From an uncultured Candidatus Saccharibacteria bacterium (GTDB lineage: Bacteria > Patescibacteriota > Minisyncoccia > Phycocordibacterales > UBA9973): a stretch of 46,430 nucleotides of DNA. This document shows positions 7,319-45,787 of this stretch, one piece after another; the first letter of the stretch is position 1, and the number at the start of each line of letters is the position of its first letter. A program made the translations under genes and the position numbers. The notes under the pieces were generated by a model. It did not search any database. It saw nothing but the letters and a program-made list of their open reading frames with translations, and was not told where the DNA came from. The stretch spans positions 1 through 46,430 of the forward strand of contig CAYTMO010000003.1 in assembly GCA_964439045.1 (NCBI GenBank). The letters are read 5' to 3'.

Positions 7319-10300
7319 ATGAGCTTGTTCGGAGCGCTCTACGGTGCACTCTCTCGTGGCAGTGGGAGCGACGGCGAAGAAGGCACTCCTCCCCCGACCG
7401 GGTCCCCCGAGATCGCGGTCTCGGGCAACGGCGTAAACATCGCGGACGGGGACGCGACGCCGAGCCTGACTGACCACACCGACTTCGGGGAGGCGACGCA
7501 CAGCGGGGCCGCCATCGAGCGCGTCTTCACTGTCGAGAATACGGGCACCGCGGACCTGACGACAGCCAGCCTCGCGGTCCCGACAGGCTTCTCGATCTCC
7601 GAAGGGCTGTCGTCGATGATCGCTGCCGGCACGTCGGACACCTTCACCGTGGCCCTCGATACGGGCTCGGTCGGTACGAAGTCGGGCGACATCTCGTTCG
7701 TGAACAACGACAGCAACGAAGGCATCTTCACGTTCGCCGTAACAGGCGTCGTCAGCTCCCCGCCTCCGCCGCCCCCGCCGCCTCCCCCGCCGGAGCCCAC
7801 CGTCAGCTTGACCGCGCCTACCGATGGCGGGACGAGCACGTCGGCTCCTGTGACGGTGACCGCGACAGCGACGGCGAACAGCCCGGCGACGAGCATCGCT
7901 AGCGTCCAGTTCCGCTCAGGCGGGGTTACGTTCGCGACGGACAGCAGCGGGCCGCCGTGGTCCGTCAGTTGGAGCCCCGACAACGGAACGTACTCGCTTG
8001 ATGCGGTCGCGACCGACAACCTCGGTGGCGTTGGCACGTCGGATGCGCTGACCCACACGGTCAGCGTGGCTCCGGCCGCCGGCAGCACGATCGCGGAGCT
8101 TGCGTACTTCAACGACACCGCGTCGTCGATCCCCGCCAATGCGGTGACGCGGATGTTCGGCCACCAGTATCGGGAAGCGGATGTCCCCGACACGCAATGG
8201 CCGACGTTTGAGCTGGAAGACGGCACGCCTGTCGCGTCGAATACCGACATGGCGGCGTATTGGCCGGACGACTCTCTGTGCAACGCTTCGCACACGCTGC
8301 GCGTCCCTACCGGCATCGCTGCCATCGCACGCACATTCACGATCTCGTCGACGACGATCACGCTTGCGAACCAGACCGGCCTGACGAACGGCGACGCAGT
8401 CGTGTTGAAGTCGAGTCAGGCAATGCGCCGGCCTTTCCGCGCGTGGAAGGTCTACTACGTTCGCCTCGGCACTTCGAACACCGCGACGATCCATCCGACA
8501 GCGGCTGACGCCGTTGCCGGAACCAACGCCATCCTGCCTTCGACGGTGGCTGCCGATGCCGGAAGCGGCACGTTCACGCTCTGCCCGGCGCTGAAGATCA
8601 AGATCAAGAACGGCGGCTCTGCTCCGTCGGCGAGTGGGTTCGACACGACGACGATTACGTCCAACTCCGATCTCAAGCTCGAGGCGGTCGGCGCGCTCGA
8701 ACTCAGCGGGACCTACACGTCGTCCGTGAATACCGGCATCAGCGACGGTGGGTTGAACGTCTTCGCGATCGGTGATGGGCCTGTCTCCCGGATCTATCGC
8801 ATCTACCAGGAGTTCAACAACGGTTCGGATCACGCGCAGTTTGGCGCGAACTTCTATTTGCAGGTCTTGAAGAACAGCAGTGGTGGGCTGTATGGCATCC
8901 GCTGCTGGCCGGATCTCCACAACGGCTGGGACGATGTCACGTCCCCGAAGGTGAAGGTCCTCGGCCTCGCTTCGATCGTTTGCAAGGACGGATCTACGAC
9001 AATCGCCACGCCTACCGTCTGGTGGAGCACGCGCACGTTCACGGCGTCTGGTGGGGTGCTGACCTCGGGCACCACGTTCGAAGATCCGGGCGAAGGCGAT
9101 ACGAGCTTCCCGAAGTACCCCCCGGTAAAGATCACGACGACTGGTACGCTCCCGACCGGGCTGACGCCGGACGCGTTCTATTGGATGCGCGCGAGCATCC
9201 TCGGAACGACCTTCTCGCTGCACACGACCTACCGCGACTGCGTGACGAACGCGAGCCCGGTTGCCGTCTCCGGCAGCGGCAGCGGCGTGCATTCGTTCAC
9301 TGTCGTTCCGTGGGTCGACAACTACGCGATTGGCCCCGGCATCGTCGGCACCGATGGAGAGTACAACTTCGTTCAGGGCGCGGCTGGGACAGGGTCGGAA
9401 GCGGCCGGACAGATCGTGCAAGACACCGAGTACCTCTGGTCAACGCGCGCTTGGGGTGCGTATCGCACGGATGCGTTCGTCAGCCCGATCGAGGACCGGC
9501 AATTCTGCATGCAGACGGCTCACGCGCTGCTAGCTTCCGGTACGACCGGCGCAGCGCCGATGATGGGGAACGTCGATAGCTGGACCGTGCGTTACATGAT
9601 CCACCGCAACTCGCGCCGCGGCTATCGAGCGATGGTCGCGGGGAACGATGCGATCAGGTTTGCGGTCAGGAAGAAGTCGACGCGCACCATTATCAACACC
9701 GCCAACGCTTCGTACACGGGGATGGATGCGTCGCGTCTCAATCACACTGTGTATTGGGGCTATAATGACGGCCAGTGGCGGGACGCCAACATCCCCGACA
9801 CATCGACGATGGTGCTGAAAGACTACGGATGGAGCCACGCGCCCGGCATCGCCCCCGGGGGGTTCCTAATCCACGGCGAGCCTCAGTACCTCGATAAGAT
9901 GCACGGGATCGGCGCTTCGGCGATCACGCATAGGTACGCGGACCCGATCTATAACACGTACAGAACACAGAACATCGGCGGAACCCTCTGGTACAACTGC
10001 TTGACGAACTCGCATGCCGAGCGCGAGGCGTCGTGGATCGTGAGGGACGTAGCATACCCGGCGCTTCTGTCCCCGGAGACGTGGCAAAGCGTCCCGATTA
10101 AGCAGTATTTCAAGGACATCGTGACGAACGACGCGGCCGCGACGCGCGCGAAGAAGGCGACGCAGACCGCGTTCGCGCAGTCAATCAAATGGCCGAAGTT
10201 TCACGTGCCATCTGGCGACCTTGGAATGTCCACATGGTCGACGATGTTCTTGACCGGCGCGCGCATCATCGCGTGGATGGCCACGCGCGACGCGAACATC

Positions 10301-11787: not shown

Positions 11788-12196
11788 GCTCGTCGTCTAC
11801 GCCATAGACCTGCCTGGAGACGAAGACCTCAAGCGTGGTCACGTCGTCGACATCCGCGAGGATGACGAAGAAGTCGGCGGCGAGATTGAGAACGGCGCGC
11901 TGATGCCGGATGGGTCGCGTGCGTTTCTATGGCGCGTGGTCAAGGTGCCCGGCACGAAAGCGGAGTACGAGGCGATGATCGCGAGAGACGCGAAGCTCGA
12001 CGACGAACTGAAGATAGTTCCCGCGCGTCGCCGCAAGATCGACCTCGATGCGCTCGAAACGGCAGCGCTGACGAAGGGCGGGAAGCTCGATTTCGTCGAT
12101 CCGATCATCGCCACGAAGGCGGAGGTTGACGCGCTCGTGTCGGTCGAACTGACGCGCGACGCTGGTGTGTTTATGCCGCCCGAGGAGCCGCGCTGA
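11780..12196 (+). CDS. Hypothetical protein (138 aa)
   Basis: ATG overlaps the upstream stop by 8 nt, and its stop overlaps the next start (TGATG). Confidence 0.6.
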   Translation: MAKLVVYAIDLPGDEDLKRGHVVDIREDDEEVGGEIENGALMPDGSRAFLWRVVKVPGTKAEYEAMIARDAKLDDELKIVPARRRKIDLDALETAALTKGGKLDFVDPIIATKAEVDALVSVELTRDAGVFMPPEEPR

Positions 12197-13899
12197 TGGC
12201 GACAAAGACGATCCAGGCATCGGGCGGCGACTACGCAACGCCCCATCTTTGGGTAAGCTACGTCGCGGCACTCGGCACGCTGTCCGCGCCCGAAATCGGC
12301 GAGATGGCCGCCGAAGAGTTCAATTCCGGCTCTCTCACACTTGGTGGTGGGTCCGTCGTCGCAAGCGCAACCAATCAGATCATCCTGCGATGCCAGACCG
12401 GCGCGGAGTACACCGGCAACCCGCTCAAATACGTCGACGGCGCGCGCATCTTGTTCGACGGAACGAACGAGCAAATGCAGGTGTCGTGGAACCATGTTGT
12501 GCTGCAAAGGTTCGCGATCAGTGGGACCGGTGCGAACTCGAACCTCGGCCGCCTCCGAGTCGATTACAATCTCACAGTAGCGACGCAAAATCTGATCATT
12601 GAGGAGTCTGGATCTTCCGCCACGTCACAGTTCGACGATCGTGGCGCGGCGGCATCGGTGCGGGAGAACTGCACTTTGATCCGTACAGCCGGGTCGGGCT
12701 CCGGGACATCGGCGCTACGGTCCGCCAACTTCAACAAGACCTACAAAAATTTCACACTCATAGCGCTTAACTCGCCGGCGAGCAGCTCGGGGACGGTCAC
12801 GGCTTACGGGACGCCGATCTACATCAACTGCGTCTCCTTCGGCTACGCGACCGACTACGGATCGACGTGGAACAGCGGATCATCGAAGAACTGCGCCACC
12901 GACAAGGCGAGCGGGTCGAGCAACATAGCGTCGATGACCGGCGCGCAGTTCTCTGTCGTGAGCGGAGACTTCGTCAGCGTCACGAGCGGGTCGCATGACA
13001 TCCGCGTCGCGAGCGGCTCCACGAAGTTGAAAGACCTCGGCGCGGCTAGCGGCGGGACAACGACGGACTGCCTAGGAAACTCGATCAGCGGCGGAACGCG
13101 CGACATTGGCGCGCATGAATACCAAGCGTCTGGCGCTCCTGAGGTTGCGGTCTCTGGCAACGGCGTAAACATCGCGGATGGCTCCTCTACAGCGAGTGCT
13201 ACGGATCACACTGATTTTGGCAGCGTTGCCCAAGGCGGTTCGGCGGTCTCTCGCACGTTCACCGTGACGAACTCGGGCACCGCGGATCTGACAACTTCAG
13301 GGCTCACGGTCCCTACTGGCTTCAGCGTCACCGAAGGCTTGAGCGCCACGATCGCGGCGAGTGCGTCGGACACCTTCACCGTCGAGCTGGCCACCGCGAC
13401 TGCTGGCCTGAAGTCTGGTGACGTTAGCTTCACGACGAACGACAGCGACGAAGGAACGTTTAACTTCGCGATCGCCGGGACAGTAACTACGCCGGCTAAC
13501 AACCCGCCGACCGGGTCCATCACCTCGCCGGCTGATGGCGCGACGATCACTGCCATTCCTGTAACTGTGACGGCGTCGTTGACGGACTCTGATGGGACGG
13601 TGATCCAGGCTCGACTGTTCGAGGACGGAGCGCCGATCGGGACTGACATAGCGTCGCCGTGGGAGTGGCTGTGGAGCCCGTCCAATGGCGTGAAGACTTT
13701 GTGGGTGGAGGTCACTGACGACGACCTGGACTCCGCGCTCACCGCCGAGGTAGTAGTAACGGTGGCTGTCCCGCCTCCGCCTCCGCCTCCCCCGCCTCCG
13801 CCGCCCCCGTCAGGCGGCCCTGGCGGCGGCGCCTTGTTCGGAGCGCTGAACGGCCTCCACCGTAATCCTCGTACTCGACTACTCCGAAAGGGCGTCTGA
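12196..13899 (+). CDS. Beta-helix-like tailspike/depolymerase candidate with a C-terminal adhesin module (567 aa)
   Basis: The N-terminal ~310 aa are Ser/Gly/Thr/Asn-rich with repetitive strands ending ...RDIGAHEYQ, as in parallel beta-helix proteins. The C-terminal module is paralogous to 7319..11368. A 13-Pro tract spans 13771-13809. Confidence 0.65.
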   Translation: MATKTIQASGGDYATPHLWVSYVAALGTLSAPEIGEMAAEEFNSGSLTLGGGSVVASATNQIILRCQTGAEYTGNPLKYVDGARILFDGTNEQMQVSWNHVVLQRFAISGTGANSNLGRLRVDYNLTVATQNLIIEESGSSATSQFDDRGAAASVRENCTLIRTAGSGSGTSALRSANFNKTYKNFTLIALNSPASSSGTVTAYGTPIYINCVSFGYATDYGSTWNSGSSKNCATDKASGSSNIASMTGAQFSVVSGDFVSVTSGSHDIRVASGSTKLKDLGAASGGTTTDCLGNSISGGTRDIGAHEYQASGAPEVAVSGNGVNIADGSSTASATDHTDFGSVAQGGSAVSRTFTVTNSGTADLTTSGLTVPTGFSVTEGLSATIAASASDTFTVELATATAGLKSGDVSFTTNDSDEGTFNFAIAGTVTTPANNPPTGSITSPADGATITAIPVTVTASLTDSDGTVIQARLFEDGAPIGTDIASPWEWLWSPSNGVKTLWVEVTDDDLDSALTAEVVVTVAVPPPPPPPPPPPPPSGGPGGGALFGALNGLHRNPRTRLLRKGV

Positions 13900-30161: not shown

Positions 30162-30178
30162 GGTATCACATGATACCT
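30161..30178. promoter_or_regulatory. 18-bp near-perfect palindrome AGGTATCACATGATACCT upstream of the tail fibre gene
   Basis: 8 of 9 positions are self-complementary, in the 31-nt gap between 30161 and 30193. A 2-nt centre is too short for an RNA hairpin loop, which favours a protein-binding site. Confidence 0.55.
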
Positions 30179-30192
30179 GGAATGGAGCGTAG

Positions 30193-31488
30193 ATGACAGT
30201 CGAGACCACCGTCAGCAAGGTGATTGCGCCCGGCAACGGCTCCGCGACCACCTTCTCTTTCAGTCCGGTCGTCCTGCCGGAAGACGCAGACGATCTTGTC
30301 GTCTATTTGCGCGACGTGTCGACAGGCGTCGAGACGCTGCTGAGCCGCGGCACCAGTTCGACGACCTACAGCGTCACCGTCTCCAGCTACCCAGGCACCG
30401 GCTCGATCACCTACCCGGCGAGCGGCGGCACCCCGATCACGTCCGCGTACGAGCTTGTCATGCTGCGCGTGCTGACGATCGAGCAGCAGACCGACCTACC
30501 GAACCAAGCGACCTACTACCCCGAGGTGCTCGAAGCGGCACTCGATCGCGCGACGATGGTCGACCTCCAGCAGCAGGAGAAGCTCGACCGCACGCCGAAG
30601 TTCCTGCCCGGCGTCGACCTGAGCGAGATCGACTTCGACGTCGAGACGATCCCGACGCCCGTCGCCGACCAAGTCCTGGCCATCAACGCGACGGCGACCG
30701 GCTTCACCCTGGTGGACGTGCCCAGCGCCTCGCTCGTTACCGCGGCTGAAGCTGCCGTCACCAATGCCGAGATCGCGCAAGCCGCGGCTGAAGCTGCTGC
30801 CGACGGCGCCATCGCTGCCGCCGCGCTGCTCCCGACGCCAGCCAACCCCGGCGACGACAACAAGTTCCTGCGCGCCAATGGTGGCGTCTACACGCTGGTC
30901 ACCTCGTCGGTGACGGGCGACGTCGTCGGCCCGGCGTCGGCCGGCTCCAACTCCATCGTCCTCTACGACGGCACCACCGGCAAGCTGGTCAAGGCCGGCG
31001 TAGCCCTGGGCACATCTGGACACCCGCTGGTCAGCGCTGGCGCCGGCAGCCCGCCCGCGTTCGGGCAGGTTCCGACCGCCGGCATCACGGATCTGGCGGT
31101 GACCGAGGGTAAGCTCGCCGCGAATGCCGTAGGCGTGGCCAAGCTCAAGCGCGAAGGCACCGCGGGGCAGATGCTCTACTCGGGCGGTGCCGGCGCCGAT
31201 CCATCGTGGGGCGCTCCTCCGGTATCGTCGGGCGAGACCAACACCGCGAGCAACGTCGGCTCGGGCTCGGGCGTCTGGAAGGACAAGAACGGGGTCGACC
31301 TGCGCTTCAAGTCCATCATCCTGGCCCACGCAGTCTACATGGACGGCGCGCTCAACAACACGACTGGGGCTTCCCCTGGCGCTTCGGCGATCTTCAAGCG
31401 CGCGTTCACCACCCTGACGGCGAACACCAACGACCTGACGTTCACGTGCTACCAATACTTTGAAACCGATAGCGGTGGGGGCGGCTGA
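30193..31488 (+). CDS. Tail fibre/spike protein (431 aa)
   Basis: The N-terminus MTVETTVSKVIAPGNGSATTFSFSPVVL...YLRD resembles conserved podovirus fibre N-terminal anchor domains. The C-terminus is Ala- and Gly-rich. Confidence 0.7.
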   Translation: MTVETTVSKVIAPGNGSATTFSFSPVVLPEDADDLVVYLRDVSTGVETLLSRGTSSTTYSVTVSSYPGTGSITYPASGGTPITSAYELVMLRVLTIEQQTDLPNQATYYPEVLEAALDRATMVDLQQQEKLDRTPKFLPGVDLSEIDFDVETIPTPVADQVLAINATATGFTLVDVPSASLVTAAEAAVTNAEIAQAAAEAAADGAIAAAALLPTPANPGDDNKFLRANGGVYTLVTSSVTGDVVGPASAGSNSIVLYDGTTGKLVKAGVALGTSGHPLVSAGAGSPPAFGQVPTAGITDLAVTEGKLAANAVGVAKLKREGTAGQMLYSGGAGADPSWGAPPVSSGETNTASNVGSGSGVWKDKNGVDLRFKSIILAHAVYMDGALNNTTGASPGASAIFKRAFTTLTANTNDLTFTCYQYFETDSGGGG

Positions 31489-33543: not shown

Positions 33544-33697
33544 CGGTCGCCTCCCCATCTACGACTGGGATGTCGCGCCACACCAACTCGTGGCCAACGA
33601 TCCAGCAGCGTTGCATGAAGTCGCGGTCGCCCGCAACCACGCGCCGATAGTTGTCGGTCGGCTTGGCGATCTCCGGCTTGGTAACGATCTCGCTCAT
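33524..33697 (-). CDS. Small hypothetical protein (57 aa; not in the ORF track)
   Basis: ATG at 33697 overlaps the stop of the metallophosphoesterase gene (ATGA). Translation begins MSEIVTKPEIAKPTDNYRRVVAG. Confidence 0.4.
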   Translation of the reverse strand: MSEIVTKPEIAKPTDNYRRVVAGDRDFMQRCWIVGHELVWRDIPVVDGEATDADRRG

Positions 33698-35823
33698 GTC
33701 GTGCTCCTGTGAGGCATGATCGGCATGGAGCCATGGCTCCAGCGATGGTTATAGAAGCCGCGGTTGAAGAAGCGCATGATCTCGGGCGCAAACCGGGTTA
33801 TCGCTCCCGTTTTGGGGTCCTGCGTCAGCTTGACCAGGGCGCCGCCGACGTGCGCCTCTAGCTTCTTCTTGCGCATGAACGGCGTTTGGTCTTCTGTGCA
33901 GTTGTGAACGGCCACGTTCCCGGCGATGTAGGAGTTGTCTCCCTCGACCTCGAAGTTGTAGACCCTGGCCGGGCGCGATGGCTTAGCCCGCTTGACGCCA
34001 ACCACGGCGACCTTGCACATGGTGGTCTCTTGGTCGTACTCGTACCACGAGCGGGGCTGGATCAGACGCTCGGTCAAAGGCACCCAGCGCACTTCGTCGA
34101 CCTTGGCCCCCAGGGCAGAGCCGTCGTACTTCGCTTTCTTGTGCTCTAGGAGGCGGCCCCTGCTGCGCTCGATCTCGAAGGCGACAACCTTGCCGTCCTT
34201 GATTCCGATGGCATCAGGGATTTGCGAAGCCCCGACAGGGATCATCCGCCAGCCCTCGGCTTCCATCTTGGCGCAGAAGGGCAGGATGTCGCGCTGGAGG
34301 TGAACATCTCCGTCGCTGCCGCCGCGCTTCCAGACCTTCGACCCCTTGGTCGCCGAAAGCCTATCCCGAGTTTCGGCTAAGTCCATCGGGTTAGCGTTGC
34401 GCGACATCTTCATCCAGTAGGGGATAGGCTCCCCGGTCACCGAGCATGGGTGAGACTTGACGAACACTACGTCGCCAACCCGGATCTCAGAAATCGCCTT
34501 CCACTCCTTGCGCCCATCTGCGGTCTCGGTGAGGACGGGATGCTCGGGGGTGGCCGTGAGCGTCTGGTCGAAGCGCCCGATGCGCCCGTAGTTCAAGGAC
34601 ACCATGTCCCCGTAGTGGAGGCGCTCGTAGAGCCTTGTGACCTTCCGCAGTCTGCCCAGATGGGTCACCACTTCGTCGCCCAGCTTCACGTTCTTGATGC
34701 TGATGCGCCCCGCCGCAGTCTCGACCCTGGTGTTGGCCGTGAAGCAGCCGGTCTGAAGGCACCAGACGTTTCGGATGTTGCCTGCCCAGAGCTTGTGATA
34801 GTGGCCGTAGAGACCGACCGCCGGCTTCTCGCCGCCGTCCAGGCTCTCGATGATCTTCTGGATGGAGTAGCTCAGCGCGTAGGCCGAGCCGCCGCCAGGA
34901 TGCACCACGGCCAGCATCGAATAGGCGCCCGTGTTGGCGTTCACCAGCTTGACGTGGGCCTCCATGTAGCCGAGGTTGACCCAGTCGCTGCGCCCCGCCT
35001 GCTGCATCACGTGCTCGGCGTACTTGCCGATGTCGACGCCCTCGCGCTGGCCGTACCAACCTTCGTGGTCGTCGCCGGCCACGGCGTAGGTCACCAGCCC
35101 CTTGCGCTTTGGATACTCCGCGGCAAGGTAGGCAAGCTGGTTGTCCATGCCGTGCGTGTGCAGGTCGAACTTGTTGAAGCGCGCCTCACCGTCGATCCAG
35201 TTGCCGGCGTTGAACACGCGATCGGCGCCCTCCTCGACGAAGGTGTCGTAGAGGCTGTTCAAAGTGTCTAAACGCTCATACTTTGAACCGAGGTGGTTGT
35301 CCGACGTGGCGCCGAAGAGGAACGTGTTGTCGGGGCGGGACACGTACTCGAACACGGGGCCGCCGATGAACGCCGGCTGCACGTCCTTCTCCAGCGTCAG
35401 CACGCCCGCGCGCTCATGGACGTTGTGGCCCTGGCGCCGGAGCATCTCGATCTCGTCGTGCGTGAAGCCCTGGCCCACCGCCCCCTTCTTCAGCCGCTCC
35501 AATAGCGTGGGCTCGGGCGGGGGCGGGACTTCGATCGGCGCGGGCTCGACGACGCGCTGCGGCTGACCCAGTGGGACAAGGCGCGGCGGCTCAGGCAGTT
35601 TGTAGCGCCCCCAGTCCGGTTCGAGCCCATACACCGCCTTGATTATCTCGAAAACGCGCATGGTGGTAGAGTTGCGGTTGAGGCCGAGGTCGATCGCGGC
35701 CTGGGTCAACGCGCCCGGCCCCTTGCCAGGGAACCCAGGCGGGCGGAAGCCACGACTCAAGCAGTCATTGACCGCGCCGACGCGGCGCGCAGCCTCTTGG
35801 AAACTGATGTGTGGGGACGCCAT
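33694..35823 (-). CDS. Calcineurin-like metallophosphoesterase precursor (709 aa) interrupted by an intein
   Basis: GATSDNHLG, AGNWIDG, GDDHEGW and GHYHK motifs indicate a metallophosphatase fold. N-terminal ~130 aa extension. AAGGAG RBS. Confidence 0.75.
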   Translation of the reverse strand: MASPHISFQEAARRVGAVNDCLSRGFRPPGFPGKGPGALTQAAIDLGLNRNSTTMRVFEIIKAVYGLEPDWGRYKLPEPPRLVPLGQPQRVVEPAPIEVPPPPEPTLLERLKKGAVGQGFTHDEIEMLRRQGHNVHERAGVLTLEKDVQPAFIGGPVFEYVSRPDNTFLFGATSDNHLGSKYERLDTLNSLYDTFVEEGADRVFNAGNWIDGEARFNKFDLHTHGMDNQLAYLAAEYPKRKGLVTYAVAGDDHEGWYGQREGVDIGKYAEHVMQQAGRSDWVNLGYMEAHVKLVNANTGAYSMLAVVHPGGGSAYALSYSIQKIIESLDGGEKPAVGLYGHYHKLWAGNIRNVWCLQTGCFTANTRVETAAGRISIKNVKLGDEVVTHLGRLRKVTRLYERLHYGDMVSLNYGRIGRFDQTLTATPEHPVLTETADGRKEWKAISEIRVGDVVFVKSHPCSVTGEPIPYWMKMSRNANPMDLAETRDRLSATKGSKVWKRGGSDGDVHLQRDILPFCAKMEAEGWRMIPVGASQIPDAIGIKDGKVVAFEIERSRGRLLEHKKAKYDGSALGAKVDEVRWVPLTERLIQPRSWYEYDQETTMCKVAVVGVKRAKPSRPARVYNFEVEGDNSYIAGNVAVHNCTEDQTPFMRKKKLEAHVGGALVKLTQDPKTGAITRFAPEIMRFFNRGFYNHRWSHGSMPIMPHRSTT
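33901..34746 (-). mobile_element. Intein (282 aa) within the metallophosphoesterase
   Basis: Starts CFTANTRVETAAGRISIKNVKLGDEVV, has TPEHPV (block B-like), and ends YIAGNVAVHN followed by Cys. Boundaries were verified codon by codon. Confidence 0.75.
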
Positions 35824-38467: not shown

Positions 38468-38679
38468 TTGCCGTACACCTTCGCCTGCTTGGCCTTGACG
38501 ATCGCATCGACTTCTGCGCAGTCCAACGCGCCTTCGACGTAGAGGCGGATCAGGCTGGAGCGCGACGTGCCCAGATGCGCCGCCCACTTGCCCAAGCGAT
38601 CGTGCAGGTCGTTCGGCAGGTAGACGTTGAACGTGCGGTGCTTGGTCGGGAAAGTCGGTCGGCCACGTTTCTTGGTCAT
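38464..38679 (-). CDS. Ribbon-helix-helix protein (71 aa)
   Basis: RTFNVYLPNDLHDRLGKWAAHLGTSRSSLIRLYVEGAL fits the RHH pattern. GGGGAGG RBS. The 161-aa ORF in the track is upstream read-through. Confidence 0.65.
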   Translation of the reverse strand: MTKKRGRPTFPTKHRTFNVYLPNDLHDRLGKWAAHLGTSRSSLIRLYVEGALDCAEVDAIVKAKQAKVYGK

Positions 38680-38686
38680 CTCGATC

Positions 38687-38725
38687 CTCCCCGTGAAAAG
38701 GTGCCGGTCTCTCCCGACTGCCACG
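38687..38725 (-). promoter_or_regulatory. Conserved upstream element, copy 1 (reads CGTGGCAGTCGGGAGAGACCGGCACCTTTTCACGGGGAG on the minus strand)
   Basis: Near-identical to the copies at 40857-40898 and 45337-45381. Its core ends 23 nt before the start codon. Confidence 0.6.
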
Positions 38726-38869
38726 ACTGGTTCAGAGGTCAGATAGGGCAACTCAAAGCCCGTCAATCTCTCGCCGTCGTTCGCGCCTTGTACCAAGGAG
38801 ACCGGGCCGCACTTCAACCCGGCGCCGGGCGTGCGACCATCGCGGTCACCCTTGGCTTCGCAAGGGGCG

Positions 38870-39544
38870 TTAGCCCCGGCGACTGCGGCGGCCCTCGCTG
38901 GCCGCCCCCTCGGTGCGCCCGACCGGCTTGAACAGCTTCGAGGTATCACGTGAGGACGCCAGCTTCTCGCCGTCGCGCGTCTTCTGGAAGGCGACGAACC
39001 AGAACTTCACGTGCTTGTCGTCCGAGCCCACGTCGCGCCCGGCCGAGATCGTCACGGCGAGGATGCCGTAGCAGCCGGGGTAGACGAGGCCGGAATTGCC
39101 CTCGACGATGCCGATCGGATTGGTCTGCTCGTCGTAGACCGACACGCCGCCGGGGCCGTCGGTGCCGTCCTTGTTGAACTTGGTCGACGCGCGCACGATA
39201 AGCTTGCCCTTGTAGGCGTCGCCGGGCTTGCCCTTCTCCTCGCGCTTGGCCGCATACTTCGTGCCGTCGATGAACGGCAGCCGGATGTCGCCATTGAGGA
39301 ACTCGTCCTCGACCTTCTTCGTGTCGCCCCACTCGTCGAGCGCCGCCTGGAGCAGCGCGTCCTCGATCGTGCCCTCGCCCTCGACCTGCTTCGGGTCGTA
39401 GACCATCTCGATCTTGTAGAGCGGGTCGCCCTTCTTCCCACGCGGGTCCTCGTAGACGTCGCGCTCGAACAAGGCGTGGTTGATCAGCCGCCCCTCGGGC
39501 AGCATGAACACGGGCTTCTCTTTCTTCTTCGCGTCGGTTGCCAT
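38870..39544 (-). CDS. DUF2815-like phage single-stranded DNA-binding protein (224 aa)
   Basis: ATG at 39544 (MATDAKKKEKPVFMLPEGRLINHALFERD...). Family recognised by sequence and by its position next to the DUF2800-like nuclease and PolA. Confidence 0.7.
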   Translation of the reverse strand: MATDAKKKEKPVFMLPEGRLINHALFERDVYEDPRGKKGDPLYKIEMVYDPKQVEGEGTIEDALLQAALDEWGDTKKVEDEFLNGDIRLPFIDGTKYAAKREEKGKPGDAYKGKLIVRASTKFNKDGTDGPGGVSVYDEQTNPIGIVEGNSGLVYPGCYGILAVTISAGRDVGSDDKHVKFWFVAFQKTRDGEKLASSRDTSKLFKPVGRTEGAASEGRRSRRG

Positions 39545-39546
39545 AG

Positions 39547-39681
39547 TCAGTTCTCCTCGTTGGTTGAAGTTTCGCGGAGCGCGTAAAGCTGCATCTCCAG
39601 CTCGCTGATGATGTCGTCGGCGTCGTCGTCTGCGTACTCGGCCAACAACTCGGACAATGCGTCTGCGAAAGTCTTCTTCAC
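39547..39681 (-). CDS. Small acidic protein (44 aa; not in the ORF track)
   Basis: GTG at 39681 overlaps the upstream stop (GTGA). Translation is MKKTFADALSELLAEYADDDADDIISELEMQLYALRETSTNEEN. Fills the gap exactly. Confidence 0.4.
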   Translation of the reverse strand: MKKTFADALSELLAEYADDDADDIISELEMQLYALRETSTNEEN

Positions 39682-40850
39682 TTCTTGCTCCCCTTCTTGA
39701 CCGGCTGGAACAGGGACTTCGTGTCGCGGTTGACGGCCGGTCGCGCGTCATCCATTGGCACCAGTGTCAGCCCGGCCTCGGGCTTGAAGGCGTAGCGGGC
39801 GGCCATGGCCTTGCCCTCGGGCAGCTTCTCGACGGAAGCCGGGGACAGGAGCTTCGGCTCCTCGTAGGCGCCCTTGCCATACTTGGCGACGAGGGCGTCC
39901 TTGGCGTCTTCCTTCCACTCGCGGTTGACCTTGGCCGACCCGAGCTTCCACTTCTCGAACGTGGCGCCGTGCTGGAGGCGGTTGAACGCCGTCTTCTTCA
40001 CCGCGGCGGAGACGATCTTCATGACCCCCTCCAGTTCCAGGTAGCGTTCGACCTGGGCGTTGGTCAGTTCCTCGGCGCCCTTCTCGCTCGCCTTGATCTG
40101 GTTGGCCATGGTCGTGAACTCCTCGAAATCCTTCAAAAGCTGCGGGCAGGCGCGGAAGCGAGCCGGGCAGAAGCGGCAGTGCTCCCCGCTCTCGGTATCA
40201 CGTGAGACCATCGCCCGATCCATGGCCGGCAGCAGCTTCTCGACGAGCCAGATGTCGAGATCCTGGACCGAGATCGTCCACTCGCGCACCGGGCCGGAGC
40301 TGTGCCAGCCGCGGGGCTGAGCGATGACGATGCGGATCGTGTCGATGTCCTTCCAGAGATCGAGCGTCTCCATGATGCCGCCCGCGTAGTAGAGGCACTG
40401 CGGGTTCCAGGGCACCTCGACGACGACGCCCATGCCGTGCTTGTAGTCGACGATCAGAAGCTCACGCTTGGCGCTGAAGTGGTAAGCGAAATCGATACCG
40501 CCGTAGTAGAGCGGGTGCAGCGTCGGAGCATGGAACTTGTGTTCGATCAGCCCGTACCTGACGTCAGAAACCTCCTTCCTGATCCAGTCGACGTAGACCT
40601 GGACCGCGTCGGCCATGTCCTTGTCGACCTTGAAGCCCTTGATCTCGTCGCCGATGAACGTCCAGGCGTCGCGCACCGTGAGCAGGCAAAGCTCGCCCAG
40701 GTGGTGGGCCGCCGTCCCGCGCGCCGCGTGCTCGCTCTCGTCGTCCTCGACCCCTTCGCTCAGTGAAACCGAGCCAGGGCACTTCATGAACCGATGCGTG
40801 GCCGAGCCGCCGAGGGGGCTGTGGCCGACCGGTGCGTCATCGAGTGGCAT
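39678..40850 (-). CDS. DUF2800-like PD-(D/E)XK nuclease with a Cas4-type Cys cluster (390 aa)
   Basis: IVDYKHG nuclease core and the C-terminal CRFCPARFRACPQL motif. Confidence 0.75.
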   Translation of the reverse strand: MPLDDAPVGHSPLGGSATHRFMKCPGSVSLSEGVEDDESEHAARGTAAHHLGELCLLTVRDAWTFIGDEIKGFKVDKDMADAVQVYVDWIRKEVSDVRYGLIEHKFHAPTLHPLYYGGIDFAYHFSAKRELLIVDYKHGMGVVVEVPWNPQCLYYAGGIMETLDLWKDIDTIRIVIAQPRGWHSSGPVREWTISVQDLDIWLVEKLLPAMDRAMVSRDTESGEHCRFCPARFRACPQLLKDFEEFTTMANQIKASEKGAEELTNAQVERYLELEGVMKIVSAAVKKTAFNRLQHGATFEKWKLGSAKVNREWKEDAKDALVAKYGKGAYEEPKLLSPASVEKLPEGKAMAARYAFKPEAGLTLVPMDDARPAVNRDTKSLFQPVKKGSKK

Positions 40851-40856
40851 TGGAAA

Positions 40857-40898
40857 CTCCCCGTGCAGTAAAGGTGCCGGTCTCTCCCGACTGTCACG
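40857..40898 (-). promoter_or_regulatory. Conserved upstream element, copy 2
   Basis: Minus strand reads GGCGTGACAGTCGGGAGAGACCGGCACCTTTACTGCACGGGGAG. Core ends 25 nt before the start codon. Confidence 0.6.
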
Positions 40899-40957
40899 CC
40901 CCTAGCCTGACGTTTGCACCGAGGCTGCTCCTCGGCTAGCTTAGTCCTCCTCGGGCG

Positions 40958-41491
40958 TCAGCCTTCCATCTCGAACTTGAGCGTGTCGAGGAAGGCGCGG
41001 CGCTTGTCCTGCGGGATGTCGTTGACCGTCTCGACCCCGTAGTCTTCCTTCAGGATCTGCATCACGACCTTCGGGCTGATGACCTCGCCGGCCTGCGACG
41101 CCGCCTTGGTCAGATCCGCGTCACTGATGCGATCGTCCTTGGGGGCTTCCTCAGTGCGCCGACGCCGACGCGGCTCCTCGGCTGCCGGAGCGGGTGCCGG
41201 CTCAGCCGAGTGACGCGCTCGCCGGCCACCGCTGGCGCCAGCATCCGATGCAGGCTCCGTCGTGGACGAGGCGGCATCCGCACCGGCACGGCGACGACGG
41301 GTCGTCTGAGGGACCTCGGGCTCCGCGGGCGCCTCCACCGGTTCGGCCGAGCGCCGGCTGCGGCGTCCGGTGCTTTCGGCTGCCGCCGGCTCTTCGCCAG
41401 AGACGACCTTCATCGAGCTGAAGATGCGCTGGAAGGCGGCGAACAGATCGGCATCCTCGTCGTCGAGAGTGACTTCGAACTTCTTGGACAT
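40958..41491 (-). CDS. Arg/Ala/Pro-rich, probably disordered protein (177 aa) with a folded C-terminal ~50 aa
   Basis: ATG at 41491 follows AAAGGGGA. Contains the internal repeats GRRSRRSAEP and GRRARHSAEP. Confidence 0.6.
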   Translation of the reverse strand: MSKKFEVTLDDEDADLFAAFQRIFSSMKVVSGEEPAAAESTGRRSRRSAEPVEAPAEPEVPQTTRRRRAGADAASSTTEPASDAGASGGRRARHSAEPAPAPAAEEPRRRRRTEEAPKDDRISDADLTKAASQAGEVISPKVVMQILKEDYGVETVNDIPQDKRRAFLDTLKFEMEG

Positions 41492-41528
41492 TTGGTCCCC
41501 TTTCGTTTGTGAGAGTGTCTTCAAGCTA

Positions 41529-43850
41529 TCAGATCGAGTGCTTGTGGTCAAGCGCTTGATAGATGGCGACGTCTTTTCTGATCGCCGTCGACATCACACG
41601 CTCGTCCAACGTGCCCGGCACGACCGGGATGTGGCCGATGACGCGGTCGCCCGTCTGCCCCTTGCGGTGGATGCGATCGAGGGCTTGATCGTTGCGTCCT
41701 GGCACCCAGTCAGGCTCGGCCAGTACTACGTCCTGCGCCTGCGTCAGCGTCCAGCCTTCGCCGATCACCGCGGTCTGGCCGAGGATGATCCTGGTCTTCT
41801 CCTGCGATTGGAACTGGTCGACCGCCAACTGCTTCTTCGCCGCCGAGGTCGAGCCGTCCATGTAGACGAGGCCGTACTTGGAGAGCTTGTCGCGTAGGTA
41901 GTGCAGGACCGACGTGTGCCACGCCGTCACCACGAGCTTGTCGACGCCGCTCTCCAGCAGATCCTCGACGTACGCAGCGACGCTCGGCATCTTCGCTTCG
42001 CCCAGCATCTTGCGCGCCGTCGAGATGGCGCCGTCGACCGGGATGCCGTCGTTGAATGCGTCCGCGTCCATCTCGTAGAGCTTCGAAGCGATGGCCCAGC
42101 CTGGGTGCTTTAGCGCGCGCCGCATCTCGCTCGTCACCTCCATCGGGAAGGTGTGCCACTGCTTCGGCGGCAGTTCGTGCAGCACTTGCTCCTTCAGGCG
42201 CCGCACCATGATGTGCTTGCGCAAGCGGCGCTGCAACTCGTCGAGGTTCCGCGGCACGTTGCGCACTTTCTCGGACCAGTGCAACTTGTTCGACCACGCC
42301 TGCGTCGCAGGATCGTAGACCGGGCCACGCACCATGCCGCCGCCGAGGTCGTAGTAGTGCTCCCTGAACGCCTCCAGGCTCATGCGGTCGATCGCGTCCC
42401 AGTTAAGCAGGCGCACGGCGTTGTAACAGTTATGGACGACGAGCGGCCCGGCGTTTGACAGGATGGTAAACCTTTGCCGAGGCCCCGCATTCACAAGATC
42501 GTAGACGGGCCTCAAGCTCAAGGACTCTCTCCTGCAATTCCCTGATTGATCTTCTATTCCGCGCGTTCTCAAGCTGAGTGACGCACCGCAAATTCCCAGG
42601 TTCGTACCCTCGGTTGACGTCGATCCGGTCCAGTTCGAGGGACCTATCGTCCCATCCTGGGAGCCCCATGAGGTAAGCGAGGAACTTTCGTCTGCCTTCT
42701 CTCCCTTCTCTCCACTCGCCGAAAACTGATATCCCTCGCCCGCCGTAGCTAGCCCAAGATTGATGTTTGGGGTTGTGGCATCTCTGGATGCATTGATGAA
42801 TGCGCTGCAAGCTCCATCGACGGAGTGCTTTGTCAGGGCATAGTCTGCTGTACGCTGTGTCTCGCTCCCTATTGGACTTCCTGATGTGGCACCTGCGGCA
42901 CCGAGCACGCGGTCTCGTGCGGAGCTTGTCCGCGTGCACTCGGTAGGGGTCGGAGCCGCAAGAGCACCGCACCCAAGTTGCCGCCAAACCGCCCCTAGGT
43001 CCTCGGTCGAGGCTAACGACAGTAAGCTCGCCAAACCTGTCTCCAACGCGCGGCTCATCGTATACTCGCACGCGGCCAGGGCGTGCGCCGGGGACCAAGC
43101 ACCCCCCACTAACGTTTCGTGGTCGGGGGTCATCTCCACCCCGCAGATCTTCATAGTTTCGCGTCCCCCCCGGTACACTAAGCCGCTGTGCCGCACCCAT
43201 TCTACACCGTCCCACAGTAGATCGTTGTCTGAGACGTCGATGATGGCCCTCCACCCCCCATTCGTCAAGACTAAAGTGTCTGGGCCTAAACATTCGATCG
43301 GTTGATTCGGCAGGATCGTGCCGCTCGCCAGCGTGATGCGCCCGGCCACGGAAGGGATGCAATCGGGTGCACAAATGGCGCGGGTGCGGGTGTTGCCCTT
43401 CGGGTCCTTGATCGCGTGCGCTTCGTCCAGGATCACGTGATCCCACATCACATCGAGGATCGCGTCGAGGATCGACTTGTTGGCCAGCAGTGCGTAGGAG
43501 ATGATCACGTAGTTGGCGTCGAGGCTGACGCCGTCCGAGGACTTGAGCACGGGGTAGGTGCTCACGTTCGGGATCGTCGACCACGCCCAGATCTCGCGCT
43601 CCCAGTTCAGCCTAAGACTAGCTGGGCACACAACGAGAGTATGTTTAGCGCCAATAGCATTCCCCAGTAGGATGCATTCGGCAGTCTTTCCCAGACCAGG
43701 AGCATCACCAAACAGATGGTGATTACGAGCGAGACCATACTCAACACCAGCATGTTGGTACTCCATGGGTTTCATGCCCGGCGGTGCCGGGGCACGGTAG
43801 AACTGGGGCGCCACCGCTCGGCTGCGCTCGACTTGGTAGTCTGTCGTCAC
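41529..43850 (-). CDS. SNF2/DEAH-family helicase precursor (773 aa) interrupted by an intein
   Basis: GLGKT (motif I), ILDEAH (motif II) and SGTILPNQPIE (motif III, split by the intein), with C-terminal helicase motifs. GTG start overlaps the upstream stop. Confidence 0.8.
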   Translation of the reverse strand: MTTDYQVERSRAVAPQFYRAPAPPGMKPMEYQHAGVEYGLARNHHLFGDAPGLGKTAECILLGNAIGAKHTLVVCPASLRLNWEREIWAWSTIPNVSTYPVLKSSDGVSLDANYVIISYALLANKSILDAILDVMWDHVILDEAHAIKDPKGNTRTRAICAPDCIPSVAGRITLASGTILPNQPIECLGPDTLVLTNGGWRAIIDVSDNDLLWDGVEWVRHSGLVYRGGRETMKICGVEMTPDHETLVGGAWSPAHALAACEYTMSRALETGLASLLSLASTEDLGAVWRQLGCGALAAPTPTECTRTSSARDRVLGAAGATSGSPIGSETQRTADYALTKHSVDGACSAFINASRDATTPNINLGLATAGEGYQFSASGEKGEKADESSSLTSWGSQDGTIGPSNWTGSTSTEGTNLGICGASLSLRTRGIEDQSGNCRRESLSLRPVYDLVNAGPRQRFTILSNAGPLVVHNCYNAVRLLNWDAIDRMSLEAFREHYYDLGGGMVRGPVYDPATQAWSNKLHWSEKVRNVPRNLDELQRRLRKHIMVRRLKEQVLHELPPKQWHTFPMEVTSEMRRALKHPGWAIASKLYEMDADAFNDGIPVDGAISTARKMLGEAKMPSVAAYVEDLLESGVDKLVVTAWHTSVLHYLRDKLSKYGLVYMDGSTSAAKKQLAVDQFQSQEKTRIILGQTAVIGEGWTLTQAQDVVLAEPDWVPGRNDQALDRIHRKGQTGDRVIGHIPVVPGTLDERVMSTAIRKDVAIYQALDHKHSI
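42429..43292 (-). mobile_element. Intein (288 aa) within the SNF2 helicase
   Basis: Starts CLGPDTLVLTNGGW, has TPDHETLV (block B-like), and ends NAGPLVVHN followed by Cys. The interior is less GC-rich than the flanks. Confidence 0.75.
42430..43071 (-). CDS. HNH homing-endonuclease-like ORF (about 213 aa) nested in the helicase intein, in a different frame
   Basis: RFGELTVVSL, CSCG...CRRC, CHNPKHQSWASYGGRGI and LDRIDVNRGYEPGNLRCVTQLENARN motifs. TAA stop at 42430-42432. The start is uncertain: GTG at 43071 has no clear RBS. Confidence 0.55.
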   Translation of the reverse strand: MRVYDEPRVGDRFGELTVVSLDRGPRGGLAATWVRCSCGSDPYRVHADKLRTRPRARCRRCHIRKSNRERDTAYSRLCPDKALRRWSLQRIHQCIQRCHNPKHQSWASYGGRGISVFGEWREGREGRRKFLAYLMGLPGWDDRSLELDRIDVNRGYEPGNLRCVTQLENARNRRSIRELQERVLELEARLRSCECGASAKVYHPVKRRAARRP

Positions 43851-44077
43851 GGTACTTCCCTGCCGAGCAAAACTTCAGCCTCTCGGCGCGCCCCATCCTT
43901 GCAGCCCAGGAGGTGGGAGAGCGCGTTCTCAAGGTCGCGAATGCGCTTCGTGTGCCGCTCGCTCCTCACCTTGTGCTGGTCTTCGAACATCTGTGCCATC
44001 CGCTGCTCGCTTCTGGCAGAACTCGGGAGATTGAAAAACTCCTCGGCGACCCGTCGCCACGTCATCTCTCGCATCAT
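43847..44077 (-). CDS. Hypothetical protein (76 aa)
   Basis: ATG at 44077 (MMREMTWRRV...) follows GGGGAGAG. Its stop overlaps the helicase GTG. Confidence 0.55.
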   Translation of the reverse strand: MMREMTWRRVAEEFFNLPSSARSEQRMAQMFEDQHKVRSERHTKRIRDLENALSHLLGCKDGARREAEVLLGREVP

Positions 44078-44078
44078 C

Positions 44079-44234
44079 TCAATCTCTCCCCGGTTTGTGA
44101 TACTCGCGACGCACGCTGTAGCCCAGCTCGCGCCACATGTCCGACCACGCCTTGCATCCGTCGCTGTCAAGCCCGGTCAAGCTCAGGCCGGCCACGAGCA
44201 CGCCCGCCTTGAAGACCGCCAGCGTGCAGGTCAC
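44079..44234 (-). CDS. Small membrane protein candidate (51 aa; not in the ORF track)
   Basis: GTG overlaps the upstream stop (GTGA). Strong third-position GC bias. Translation begins MTCTLAVFKAGVLVAGLSLTG. Confidence 0.4.
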   Translation of the reverse strand: MTCTLAVFKAGVLVAGLSLTGLDSDGCKAWSDMWRELGYSVRREYHKPGRD

Positions 44235-44407
44235 CAGTACCCCTGCTCGACTATGCCGACGACAGAGACAGGGTAGTGCTTCAGCAGATCGCGCGCTTTC
44301 AAGCGCAGCTCACGGGGCACCCGCGGCGTCTGCTTGGGGTCCATCAACGCCAGGAGGAACTTGCGCGTCTTAAGGACCGCGCGTGTCCTTTCATGCGGGA
44401 GCGTCAT
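44231..44407 (-). CDS. Hypothetical protein (58 aa)
   Basis: ATG at 44407 (MTLPHERTRAVLKTRKFLLAL...) lies 5 nt after GGGGA. Confidence 0.55.
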   Translation of the reverse strand: MTLPHERTRAVLKTRKFLLALMDPKQTPRVPRELRLKARDLLKHYPVSVVGIVEQGYW

Positions 44408-44502
44408 GTCGATCCCCAACAGTGCGAGAGAAAGGTGCCGGCTTCGAGGCCACTGGCCGGCGCAGTGTGCGTGCCCCGAGCGCGGGGTACCTCAGTCTCG
44501 TG

Positions 44503-45330
44503 TCAGGTCTTGCGCGTGCGGCGCAGGCCGGGCGGGATCGCGAGCGGATCGTCGTCCGCCGCGGTGGTCTGCGGCTCGCCGTCGCCGAGCGCGGAGACGA
44601 ACTTGCCGCCGACCTCGGCCGCCGCGAAGCGCACGAAATCCATCTTGTCGCGGGCGGTCAGGGCCATGAAGGACGCCTTGAGCGCATCCAGGCCCTCGGC
44701 CTTCTTCATCTCGACGCCCTTGGCCTGCTGCTTGAGCGCGGAGACATCCGTCTTGCTGAGCACTTCGAGGCCGGCGTCCGCGGCGAACGCGCGCACCGCC
44801 TTCATGGCCTCCTCCGGCTTGACGCTCAACAGTACCTCGGCCGGGCCGAAGACCTTGCGCTCGATCTCCTTGACCTTCTTCTTCGCGCGGTGCGCCTTGT
44901 TCGCCGCCGCGTTCTTTTTCCTCATGTCCTCCAGAGCGATCTGCGGGTTCGGGCTGCCGCCGACGACGGCCAGCTTCCGCACGGTCTCCCAGCTCTGATC
45001 CTTGACATTGTCCTCGACCCACTTGCGGAAGCCGATGCCCTGCGCGCCGCAGAGCTTCTTCGCTTCTTCGAGGCGCAGCGCGGCGGCGAGGCGATGGTCG
45101 TCGGCCTGCCCGTCGAGCTTGGCGATTTTCTCGAAGCGCACGTTGATCTCGTTGGCGATCGGCGCGAGCTTCTTGTCGAACTGCTCGACCGTCAGCTTCT
45201 TCGGCACCTCGACGACGGCGACGTTGGTCTTGGGCTTCTTCGCGGGCTTGGCCTTCGCCTTGCCCTCTTCCTTGAACTTGCGCGCGACGGCTTCCGCACG
45301 CTCGGCGCGCTCCGACTTCTCTTCGAACAT
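44503..45330 (-). CDS. Lys/Ala-rich hypothetical protein (275 aa), possible DNA-binding protein
   Basis: ATG at 45330 follows GGGGAGA. First large gene downstream of conserved element copy 3. Confidence 0.65.
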   Translation of the reverse strand: MFEEKSERAERAEAVARKFKEEGKAKAKPAKKPKTNVAVVEVPKKLTVEQFDKKLAPIANEINVRFEKIAKLDGQADDHRLAAALRLEEAKKLCGAQGIGFRKWVEDNVKDQSWETVRKLAVVGGSPNPQIALEDMRKKNAAANKAHRAKKKVKEIERKVFGPAEVLLSVKPEEAMKAVRAFAADAGLEVLSKTDVSALKQQAKGVEMKKAEGLDALKASFMALTARDKMDFVRFAAAEVGGKFVSALGDGEPQTTAADDDPLAIPPGLRRTRKT

Positions 45331-45336
45331 GGGTAT

Positions 45337-45381
45337 CTCCCCGAGGGTTTAAATCGCTGCCGGTCTCTCCCGGCTGTCACG
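45337..45381 (-). promoter_or_regulatory. Conserved upstream element, copy 3
   Basis: Minus strand reads CGTGACAGCCGGGAGAGACCGGCAGCGATTTAAACCCTCGGGGAG. A U-to-C change keeps the 5-bp stem paired. Confidence 0.6.
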
Positions 45382-45442
45382 CCTACTTCATGTGTCTCGG
45401 GCGTTCGAAGTCTTCATAAGCTACGCGAGAGCTTGTCTCGTG

Positions 45443-45787
45443 TCAAGCGCCTCGAACGCGGTAAGCGATCGGCGCAGCGCCAACGGGCATGCGAAGGTGG
45501 CCGGCGCGGCAGCCGTCGAAGTAGAAGGCGACGAGGAAGTGGAGGCCATCGGGCAGCAGCCAGAGAGTTACGTGCGAGACCTGGGCGACGACTTCGTCCG
45601 GTGCGCCCGCGCGCTGAGCGAACTTCTGCGCCTCCATACCGACGAGACGGAATGCGGTGGGCTGGTTGTGCTGCTCAAGGATCGACCGCGCGTCGGCGTC
45701 GGGGGTCGAGCACTCCTGCGCTTTGATGCCCGACGAAGAAGATACCCCCAGGGCCAGAGCCGCGGCGAACGCGATCGATCGGAGCAT
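45443..45787 (-). CDS. Secreted/periplasmic small protein (114 aa)
   Basis: ATG at 45787 follows AGGAGG. N-terminal signal peptide MLRSIAFAAALALGVSSSSG. Confidence 0.6.
   Translation of the reverse strand: MLRSIAFAAALALGVSSSSGIKAQECSTPDADARSILEQHNQPTAFRLVGMEAQKFAQRAGAPDEVVAQVSHVTLWLLPDGLHFLVAFYFDGCRAGHLRMPVGAAPIAYRVRGA

Follow-up and report, generated by a model that had tools for sequence, protein, structure and literature searches.

Three copies of a structured element in a phage replication block probably belong to a widespread family of cis-acting phage RNAs

Contig CAYTMO010000003.1 of an uncultured Candidatus Saccharibacteria bacterium (assembly GCA_964439045.1), analysed here over 46,430 nucleotides (nt; the window), is a phage-like genome of about 63% G+C in which neither tRNAs nor Rfam matches were found. 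Its leftward, minus-strand replication block contains three copies of a short conserved element, named E1, E2 and E3. The 275-aa gene lies directly downstream of E3. E2 is flanked by a 197-aa gene upstream and a nuclease gene downstream (DUF2800 domain match, E 1.2e-58), followed by an Enc34-type SSB gene, and E1 is flanked by this same SSB gene upstream and a 71-aa gene with an RHH_5 domain match (the RHH gene) downstream, followed by PolA. E1, E2 and E3 are predicted to be transcribed inside the leftward replication-module mRNA, each directly before the next cistron. Sequencing runs matching the window come from wastewater, bioreactor and activated-sludge metagenomes, and a near-identical phage search found no such relative of the replication block among deposited phages.

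A first-pass annotation, made from the sequence alone, had described the three copies as a conserved element of about 40 nt placed before start codons. A search with CGTGRCAGYCGGGAGAGACCGGCA, allowing up to three mismatches, returned matches in the window only at 38702-38725, 40875-40898 and 45358-45381, all on the minus strand and exactly where they had been described, while none of 100 shuffled controls gave any match. A repeat search grouped E1, E2 and E3 as one 29-nt family (D4), and a covariance model recovered the same three sites with 40.8-56.1 bits, the next best match in the window scoring 9.3 bits. The stem-loop read from the copies (GYCGG, GAGAGA, CCGGC) is real, with a covarying stem, and the core stops 22-27 nt short of each ATG, instead of 23-28 nt. 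The extent had to be revised, because an ACNNN box further upstream pairs with the NNNGU just 5' of GACAG, and the shared CGGGGAG near the ATG is a Shine-Dalgarno sequence that does not belong to the conserved element. By the covariance model, all three copies fit the family-wide plan set out below (Table 1).

Table 1. Coordinates of the three elements, their parts and associated features in the window
Feature	Position	Strand	Sequence or remark
E1	38700-38780	-	model match 38700-38783, 40.8 bits, E 5.6e-10
E1 H1, 5' strand	38780-38776 or 38777-38773	-	ACGAC or ACGGC; box about 45 nt upstream
E1 H1, 3' strand	38727-38723	-	GUCGU; H1 loop about 45 nt
E1 junction	38722-38719	-	GGCA
E1 H2	38718-38714, loop 38713-38708, 38707-38703	-	GUCGG, loop GAGAGA, CCGGC
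E1 tail	38702-38700	-	ACC, then UUUU
E2	40873-40935	-	model match 40873-40919, 55.2 bits
E2 extra upstream hairpin	40935-40919	-	CCGAGG/CCUCGG
E2 H1	40913-40909 with 40900-40896	-	ACGUC with GGCGU
E2 junction	40895-40892	-	GACA
E2 H2	40891-40887, loop 40886-40881, 40880-40876	-	GUCGG, loop, CCGGC
E2 tail	40875-40873	-	ACC
E3	45356-45409	-	model match 45356-45410, 56.1 bits
E3 flanking helix	45409-45406 with 45399-45396	-	UUCG with CGAG; encloses H1 5' strand, predicted pseudoknot topology
E3 H1	45404-45400 with 45383-45379	-	ACGCC with GGCGU
E3 junction	45378-45375	-	GACA
E3 H2	45374-45370, loop 45369-45364, 45363-45359	-	GCCGG, loop, CCGGC; A at 45358
Shine-Dalgarno and ATG of 71-aa RHH gene	38677-38692	-	GGGGAGG; downstream of E1
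Shine-Dalgarno and ATG of DUF2800 gene	40848-40863	-	CGGGGAG; downstream of E2
Shine-Dalgarno and ATG of 275-aa gene	45328-45344	-	CGGGGAG; downstream of E3
Type-b leader	44431-44468	-	ACACUGCGCCGGCCAGUGGCCUCGAAGCCGGCACCUUU; before 58-aa gene; shares only GCCGGCACCUUU with E1 and E2
Sigma-70-like promoter candidate	45418-45446	-	TTGACA-N17-TAGCTT; about 10 nt upstream of E3, by eye

The upstream extension is visible in an alignment of about 200 non-redundant loci anchored on the core. Read 5' to 3', the element consists of AACNNN, a variable loop and NNNGU, which together form helix H1; the junction GACA; hairpin H2, made of N4-G, the loop GARAGA and C-N4'; and the tail ACC, after which comes a G-poor, U/A-rich stretch. 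The element measures about 55 nt and has two covarying helices. H1 has 5 bp, in which the (A)AC-NNN box pairs with the NNN-GU directly 5' of GACAG, and its three variable pairs covary (ACGUC/GACGU, ACGCC/GGCGU, ACACC/GGUGU, ACCUC/GAGGU, ACGGC/GUCGU and others). Of 198 loci, 103 have a partner for H1 no more than 26 nt away, whereas permuting the trinucleotides among loci gave 43.8 ± 4.3; the H1 loop is between 5 and about 90 nt long. In about one third of the loci a helix between the 5' flank and the first part of the loop encloses the AACGYC box, which would make an H-type pseudoknot (flanking helix of at least 4 bp in 31% of loci, against a null of 18.7 ± 3.4%). E3 has this helix, E2 and loci of the L055 type do not, and other loci are plain consecutive hairpins. 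Pairing of the 5' flank with the 3' tail, as a third helix, gave no signal (2.25 observed, 2.22 null).

H2 was tested without a fixed stem by scanning IMG/VR with GTGACA-N4-GGAGAGAC-N4-A, which gave 83 new distinct sites. All four pairs are formed in 69 of the 83 and three of four in another 10, where we estimate that chance would produce full pairing in a few percent; the sample contains 34 different stem combinations, about a third of the sites having a G-U pair. In a model-fitted alignment of 78 distinct sequences from these loci, 98.7% of the cells are paired (76.6% when shuffled), with 118 two-sided changes, and slid controls drop to 25-45%; this alignment is biased toward the model, and the count of 69/83 is independent of it. 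Invariant positions are, in H1, the A-U and C-G pairs next to the junction, then the junction GACA itself (E1 has GGCA), and in H2 the inner G-C pair and the GARAGA loop. Downstream of H2 comes A, then C (57%) and C (56%), and at positions +3 to +7 after the core T reaches twice its background and G falls to half.

Since both helices covary, the G-U pairs would be A-C on the other strand and the element is strictly co-oriented with the downstream gene, the element is predicted to act as sense-strand RNA and not as a promoter. Three roles had been put forward at first, a promoter, an RNA processing site and a site for a translational regulator. The two covarying helices and the G-U pairs speak for the RNA level, and the promoter is abandoned.

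The exact 23-mer GTGRCAGYCGGGAGAGACCGGCA was found in more than 120 IMG/VR contigs, among the matches listed, and in 101 contigs of the GTDB collection with one genome per species, in which we estimate that fewer than one chance match would be expected. These 101 contigs come from about 12 phyla, given by the record titles as Pseudomonadota (alpha, beta and gamma), Cyanobacteriota, Planctomycetota, Chloroflexota, Acidobacteriota, Bacteroidota, Bacillota, Desulfobacterota, Myxococcota, Verrucomicrobiota, Spirochaetota and Actinomycetota. The element is consequently not specific to the phage of the window, as the words "phage-specific" had implied, nor is it a recent duplication within one genome. 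Its cultured carriers include the lambdoid E. coli phage mEp390, the T1-like Cronobacter phages CS01 and ESP2949-1, Pseudomonas phage Medea1, Stenotrophomonas phage Pokken and several cyanophages, and carriers differ in type (Mu-like, lambdoid, T1-like, cyanophages). Among E. coli genomes it is present in 9 of 5426, no model strain being a carrier.

We could not assign this family to a known one. Rfam 15 gave no match at gathering score over the whole window, unrelated noise only over 7.3 kb at E up to 10, and, for the 151 nt surrounding E2 at the same E limit, a single match, BLV_package (E 1.1), which lies on the opposite strand; the self-cleaving classes hammerhead, twister, twister-sister, pistol, hatchet, hairpin and HDV-like gave no Rfam match even at E up to 10, and an Rfam scan of 17 other loci found tRNAs only. 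A literature search for the core found it in no paper, and in the literature on put-like or antiterminator RNAs and phage RNA motifs we found no description of the element, which, as far as these searches reach, bears out the initial impression that it is not a known motif. Resemblances to the substrate of the hairpin ribozyme (UGACA/GUC), to the 23S sarcin-ricin loop GAGAGGACCGG and to the 16S 530 loop are presumably coincidental. On strong comparative evidence, E1, E2 and E3 very probably belong to a large family of structured, cis-acting RNAs that is associated with phages and lies outside Rfam 15.

The setting of the element varies from locus to locus. The first downstream gene can encode a head-tail adaptor, a sliding clamp, exonucleases, a methyltransferase, RusA or a replication initiator, and many are unknowns. 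An open reading frame (ORF) with a Shine-Dalgarno sequence starts most often 20-30 nt 3' of the core, and in at least 12 loci a tRNA starts 2-7 nt after the core, sometimes in the order element-tRNA-element-tRNA. This tRNA is repeatedly tRNA-Met(CAT) (loci L167, L197, L218, L285, L204, L137 and L152), and several of these begin with CGCGGGG and are initiator-like. In loci L055, L040 and L102 the element begins 5 nt past the stop codon of the upstream gene and so leaves no room for a promoter upstream. Two or three copies are present in 26 loci, mostly 90-260 nt apart, with only the 5' domain of the next unit between them. We found no enrichment of sigma-70-like promoters upstream of the elements, nor of terminator-like hairpins downstream in strict and relaxed scans. 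The latter result also disposed of a terminator or attenuator, and an intrinsic terminator was rejected at the copies themselves, which the scan does not list and in which H2 has only 5 bp and ACC precedes a partial U/A-rich run. Operon position derived from crude six-frame gene calling was dropped as unreliable in GC-rich DNA.

Two settings deserve a separate description. In mEp390 (locus L222) two copies lie in the leftward early leader and are followed by a 10-bp hairpin and CCUUUUC before the first gene; the annotated coding sequence gp36 (2229-2471) overlaps this leader and its first hairpin unit (GUGACA-CCUCG-GAAGAGA-CGAGG), and may be a mis-annotated non-coding leader RNA. In Anaerolineae genomes (L152, 3746-4611; L180, 2860-3290, minus strand; L198; L137) the element region adjoins tRNA-Lys and excisionase-like genes. 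Here a non-coding leader, about 750 nt long and driven by a consensus promoter, contains a terminator, a tRNA-like acceptor/T-arm minihelix, which matches the mascRNA model weakly, two element copies and then tRNA-Met.

The interpretation that we favour, with a probability of roughly 0.35, is that the element is an intercistronic "punctuation" mark that defines RNA ends, by processing or stability and possibly by self-cleavage. The compact fold would cleave itself, most plausibly in the GUGACA linker, or it would direct or withstand a universal RNase, candidates being RNase P where a tRNA follows, RNase E acting in the U/A-rich tail, and 3' exonucleases. The downstream cistron or tRNA would be left with a short standard leader, and the upstream RNA with an end protected by a hairpin. 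The partner would be the RNA itself or some part of the host machinery that all bacteria have conserved, which would account for the roughly 20 identical nt shared by phages of some 12 phyla, Mu-like, lambdoid and T1-like ones among them. With such identity a co-evolving phage protein is not the expected partner; moreover, the element seems to act on whatever follows, ORF or tRNA, which points to transcription or RNA processing and not to translation. The mid-operon placement, the sharp 3' boundary, the short gap to tRNA 5' ends and the U/A-rich, G-poor tail are all in favour of punctuation.

A close parallel to such a role is offered by the small self-cleaving ribozymes known from phages and metagenomes (pistol, hammerhead, twister, hatchet and the HDV-like theta). 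They too are sporadic, intergenic, co-oriented with genes, sometimes present in several copies per genome and near tRNAs, and we count this similar distribution in favour of punctuation. They also have about 20 near-invariant nt among covarying stems, and in pistol a hairpin loop pairs downstream and is followed by a short conserved linker and a hairpin, as in the element. Theta ribozymes, however, lie downstream of tRNAs and the element upstream, and the element, whose cleavage is putative, matches no Rfam ribozyme model. The RNase III sites of T7 are likewise repeated, structured intercistronic elements just 5' of ribosome-binding sites, where they shape mRNA ends, but they are irregular duplexes of about 20 bp conserved only within the T7 group, whereas the helices of the element, with 5 bp each, are too short for RNase III.

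Several points weigh against punctuation. No similarity to any known ribozyme model was detected (Rfam 15, E up to 10), and the RNA-labelled runs, which are from wastewater, consist of assembled contigs without read ends and possibly contain DNA. Tandem copies 90-260 nt apart with nothing between them have no obvious use in processing, E3 and the mEp390 copies may stand at a transcript start with nothing upstream to separate, and the closeness to start codons could simply be genome compaction.

The main alternative, which we hold somewhat less probable, is a put-like RNA: while nascent, the element would attach to a conserved surface on the RNA polymerase of the host and suppress pausing and termination through the downstream operon or tRNA array. 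The put RNA of phage HK022 (putL and putR) is a cis-acting antiterminator bound to the zinc-binding domain of RNA polymerase beta-prime, and its cryo-EM study describes the pairing of the AACG loop to a downstream CG (PMC9378689). Like put, which needs no phage protein, the element is a phage cis-acting RNA of about 60-70 nt. By eye, the only further likeness is a hairpin loop that starts with AACG and finds its pairing partner in a downstream CG(U/G), immediately ahead of another hairpin: the putL/putR loop AACGGCS, which pairs with CGUCG or GGUCG, resembles the AACGYC...GRCGU of the element, including the A9-G35 position, and the flanking helix of some 31% of loci would give the same pseudoknot topology. 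In mEp390, which belongs to the HK022 subfamily, the two copies occupy the place where HK022 has putL, with a strong terminator-like hairpin after them. Surfaces of the polymerase are conserved between phyla, a tandem arrangement would make the action more efficient, and untranslated tRNA arrays need protection from Rho.

Against this, there is no detectable sequence or model similarity, as model R1 run on the HK022 immunity region misses both putL and putR. The 37-nt stem II of put has no counterpart in the element, which has instead a 16-nt hairpin with the GARAGA loop and the GACA junction, and the pseudoknot is optional, many copies being plain two-hairpin structures. Elements stand mid-operon, in tandem and before tRNAs, in about 12 phyla, while put is restricted to enteric lambdoid phages. 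An antiterminator should follow promoters or precede terminators, for which there are only single cases (mEp390 and possibly E3), and in L152 the terminator stands upstream of the elements. Finally, a persistent modification of the polymerase would make it redundant to have three copies in 7 kb of a single co-directional gene block.

We consider it unlikely that the element is an operator for a host or phage RNA-binding protein controlling translation or stability of the next gene. Its fixed position just 5' of the ribosome-binding site would suit such an operator, as would the conserved apical loop and junction, which are typical of protein contacts, and the tandem sites, which suit cooperative binding; an RHH gene follows directly after E1, and Aca1 and Aca2 provide a precedent by binding hairpins in 5' untranslated regions (PMC13551039). 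However, the carriers are very different phages in which no adjacent gene common to them was seen, co-evolution with a partner encoded by the phage would not leave the site identical across phyla, and translation control does not explain the copies before tRNAs. The nut site of lambda (boxA and boxB) is a comparable signal in early leaders, in which a 5-bp hairpin with a purine-rich loop comes after a short, conserved box that is single-stranded. The element differs from it in lacking the boxA consensus and in being conserved across phyla, nut being specific to phage lineages, and a boxB for an N-like protein was rejected, no arginine-rich candidate being present near the elements in the window.

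That the element is a small, riboswitch-like aptamer sensing a universal metabolite or ion is very improbable. The size, the tendency to form a pseudoknot, the core conservation and the tandem layout are those of small riboswitch classes, and the element often lies 20-30 nt before start codons, but an expression platform is missing, since the conserved fold does not include the Shine-Dalgarno sequence and there is no coupled terminator, and tRNAs and functionally unrelated genes follow the element. Least probable of all is a DNA-level signal, either the promoter suggested by the likeness of GTGACA to TTGACA or a hairpin site in single-stranded DNA for a polymerase or primase: the sharp 3' edge followed by an A/T-rich stretch and the tRNA 5' ends 2-7 nt downstream would agree with it, but a promoter scan lists no sigma-70-type promoter at E1, E2 or E3 (17 nt after GTGRCA stand CCTTTT, CCTTTA and GCGATT), one sequence serves hosts of about 12 phyla with differing promoters and sigma specificities, some copies begin 5 nt past a stop codon, G-U pairs are strand-specific, and no RNA polymerase gene is found in the 5-kb stretches inspected of mEp390 (lambdoid) and CS01 (T1-like).

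To our knowledge, very few RNAs keep about 20 identical nt across phages of such distant hosts, here Bacteroidota, cyanobacteria, Chloroflexota, Planctomycetota and Pseudomonadota, and these few are ribozymes, riboswitch aptamers and ligands of core machinery. Tentatively, the element might represent a new autonomous RNA class of phages across bacteria, either a new small self-cleaving ribozyme or a universal RNA-polymerase-binding antitermination RNA that needs no phage protein. A true ribozyme would open a new class and offer synthetic operons a natural "insulator" part, and a true action on RNA polymerase would extend the put paradigm from a few coliphages to bacteria in general; either way phage genome annotation would improve, as the overlap of gp36 with the mEp390 leader illustrates. 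Hundreds of natural variants and the cultured carriers mEp390, CS01 and ESP2949-1 make the element directly testable, and the copies in the window reveal what appears to be a large, uncatalogued family of conserved structured phage RNAs.

A partial fourth copy had been reported before the 58-aa gene. The 11-nt identity on which it was based (CCGGCACCTTT, 44431-44441) is genuine, with three matches against 0.81 expected, but membership of the family is not borne out. In the leader at this place (type b in Table 1) neither the GACA junction nor the GARAGA loop nor H1 is present, and the covariance model does not detect this leader. It is a separate 38-nt sequence, ACACTGCGCCGGCCAGTGGCCTCGAAGCCGGCACCTTT, which occurs in identical form before the DUF2800 gene of a related phage (L226, 2443-2480), whose contig is the only one in IMG/VR to carry the 26-nt core GCCGGCCAGTGGCCTCGAAGCCGGCA. 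From these comparisons the type-b leader is a different, lineage-restricted leader and not a member of the motif family. In this contig, the closest relative found in IMG/VR, whose DUF2800 protein is 76% identical to that of the window, no copy of the element was found within the 10.8 kb fetched, and by this evidence the element is dispensable and exchangeable. In some phage-variant contigs of 90-99% similarity the RHH leader is joined to the type-b leader at the shared 11-mer, and in others the 5' domain of E2 is replaced; these may be real mosaic joints or assembly effects at the repeat. Taken as they stand, they give leaders that appear to be exchanged as modules.

Some further observations were made in the window. 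The TTGACA-N17-TAGCTT candidate upstream of E3 is not listed by the stricter promoter scan; the 11-mer TGACACGAGAC overlaps its -35 box (45435-45445, minus strand) and recurs at 44495-44505 (minus strand) before the type-b leader, two copies that are not significant on their own (1.25 expected). The best sub-threshold match of the covariance model, at 30176-30237 on the plus strand (9.3 bits, E 0.48), reads TGACAGTCG...CGGCA, sits at the junction of a 1677-aa ORF and a 431-aa ORF and is probably due to chance. A 709-aa ORF of the replication block (33694-35823, minus strand) matches Hint_2 (3.5e-07) and Intein_splicing (1.2e-05), which suggests an intein inside a replication-block protein. On the plus strand, the neighbouring stretches 1325-1382 and 1536-1593 both carry CATGTCAACCCCCCTGGCGCGAGCG (repeat family D9) and each encode the same N-terminus, MSTPLARA, in what looks like a small tandem gene duplication. 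Finally, similar repeats of the CCGCCTCCGCC type (families D2 and D11) are found at 7739-7792 and 13756-13809 on the plus strand, inside a 1349-aa ORF and a 567-aa ORF (12196-13899), where they may encode shared proline-rich linkers.

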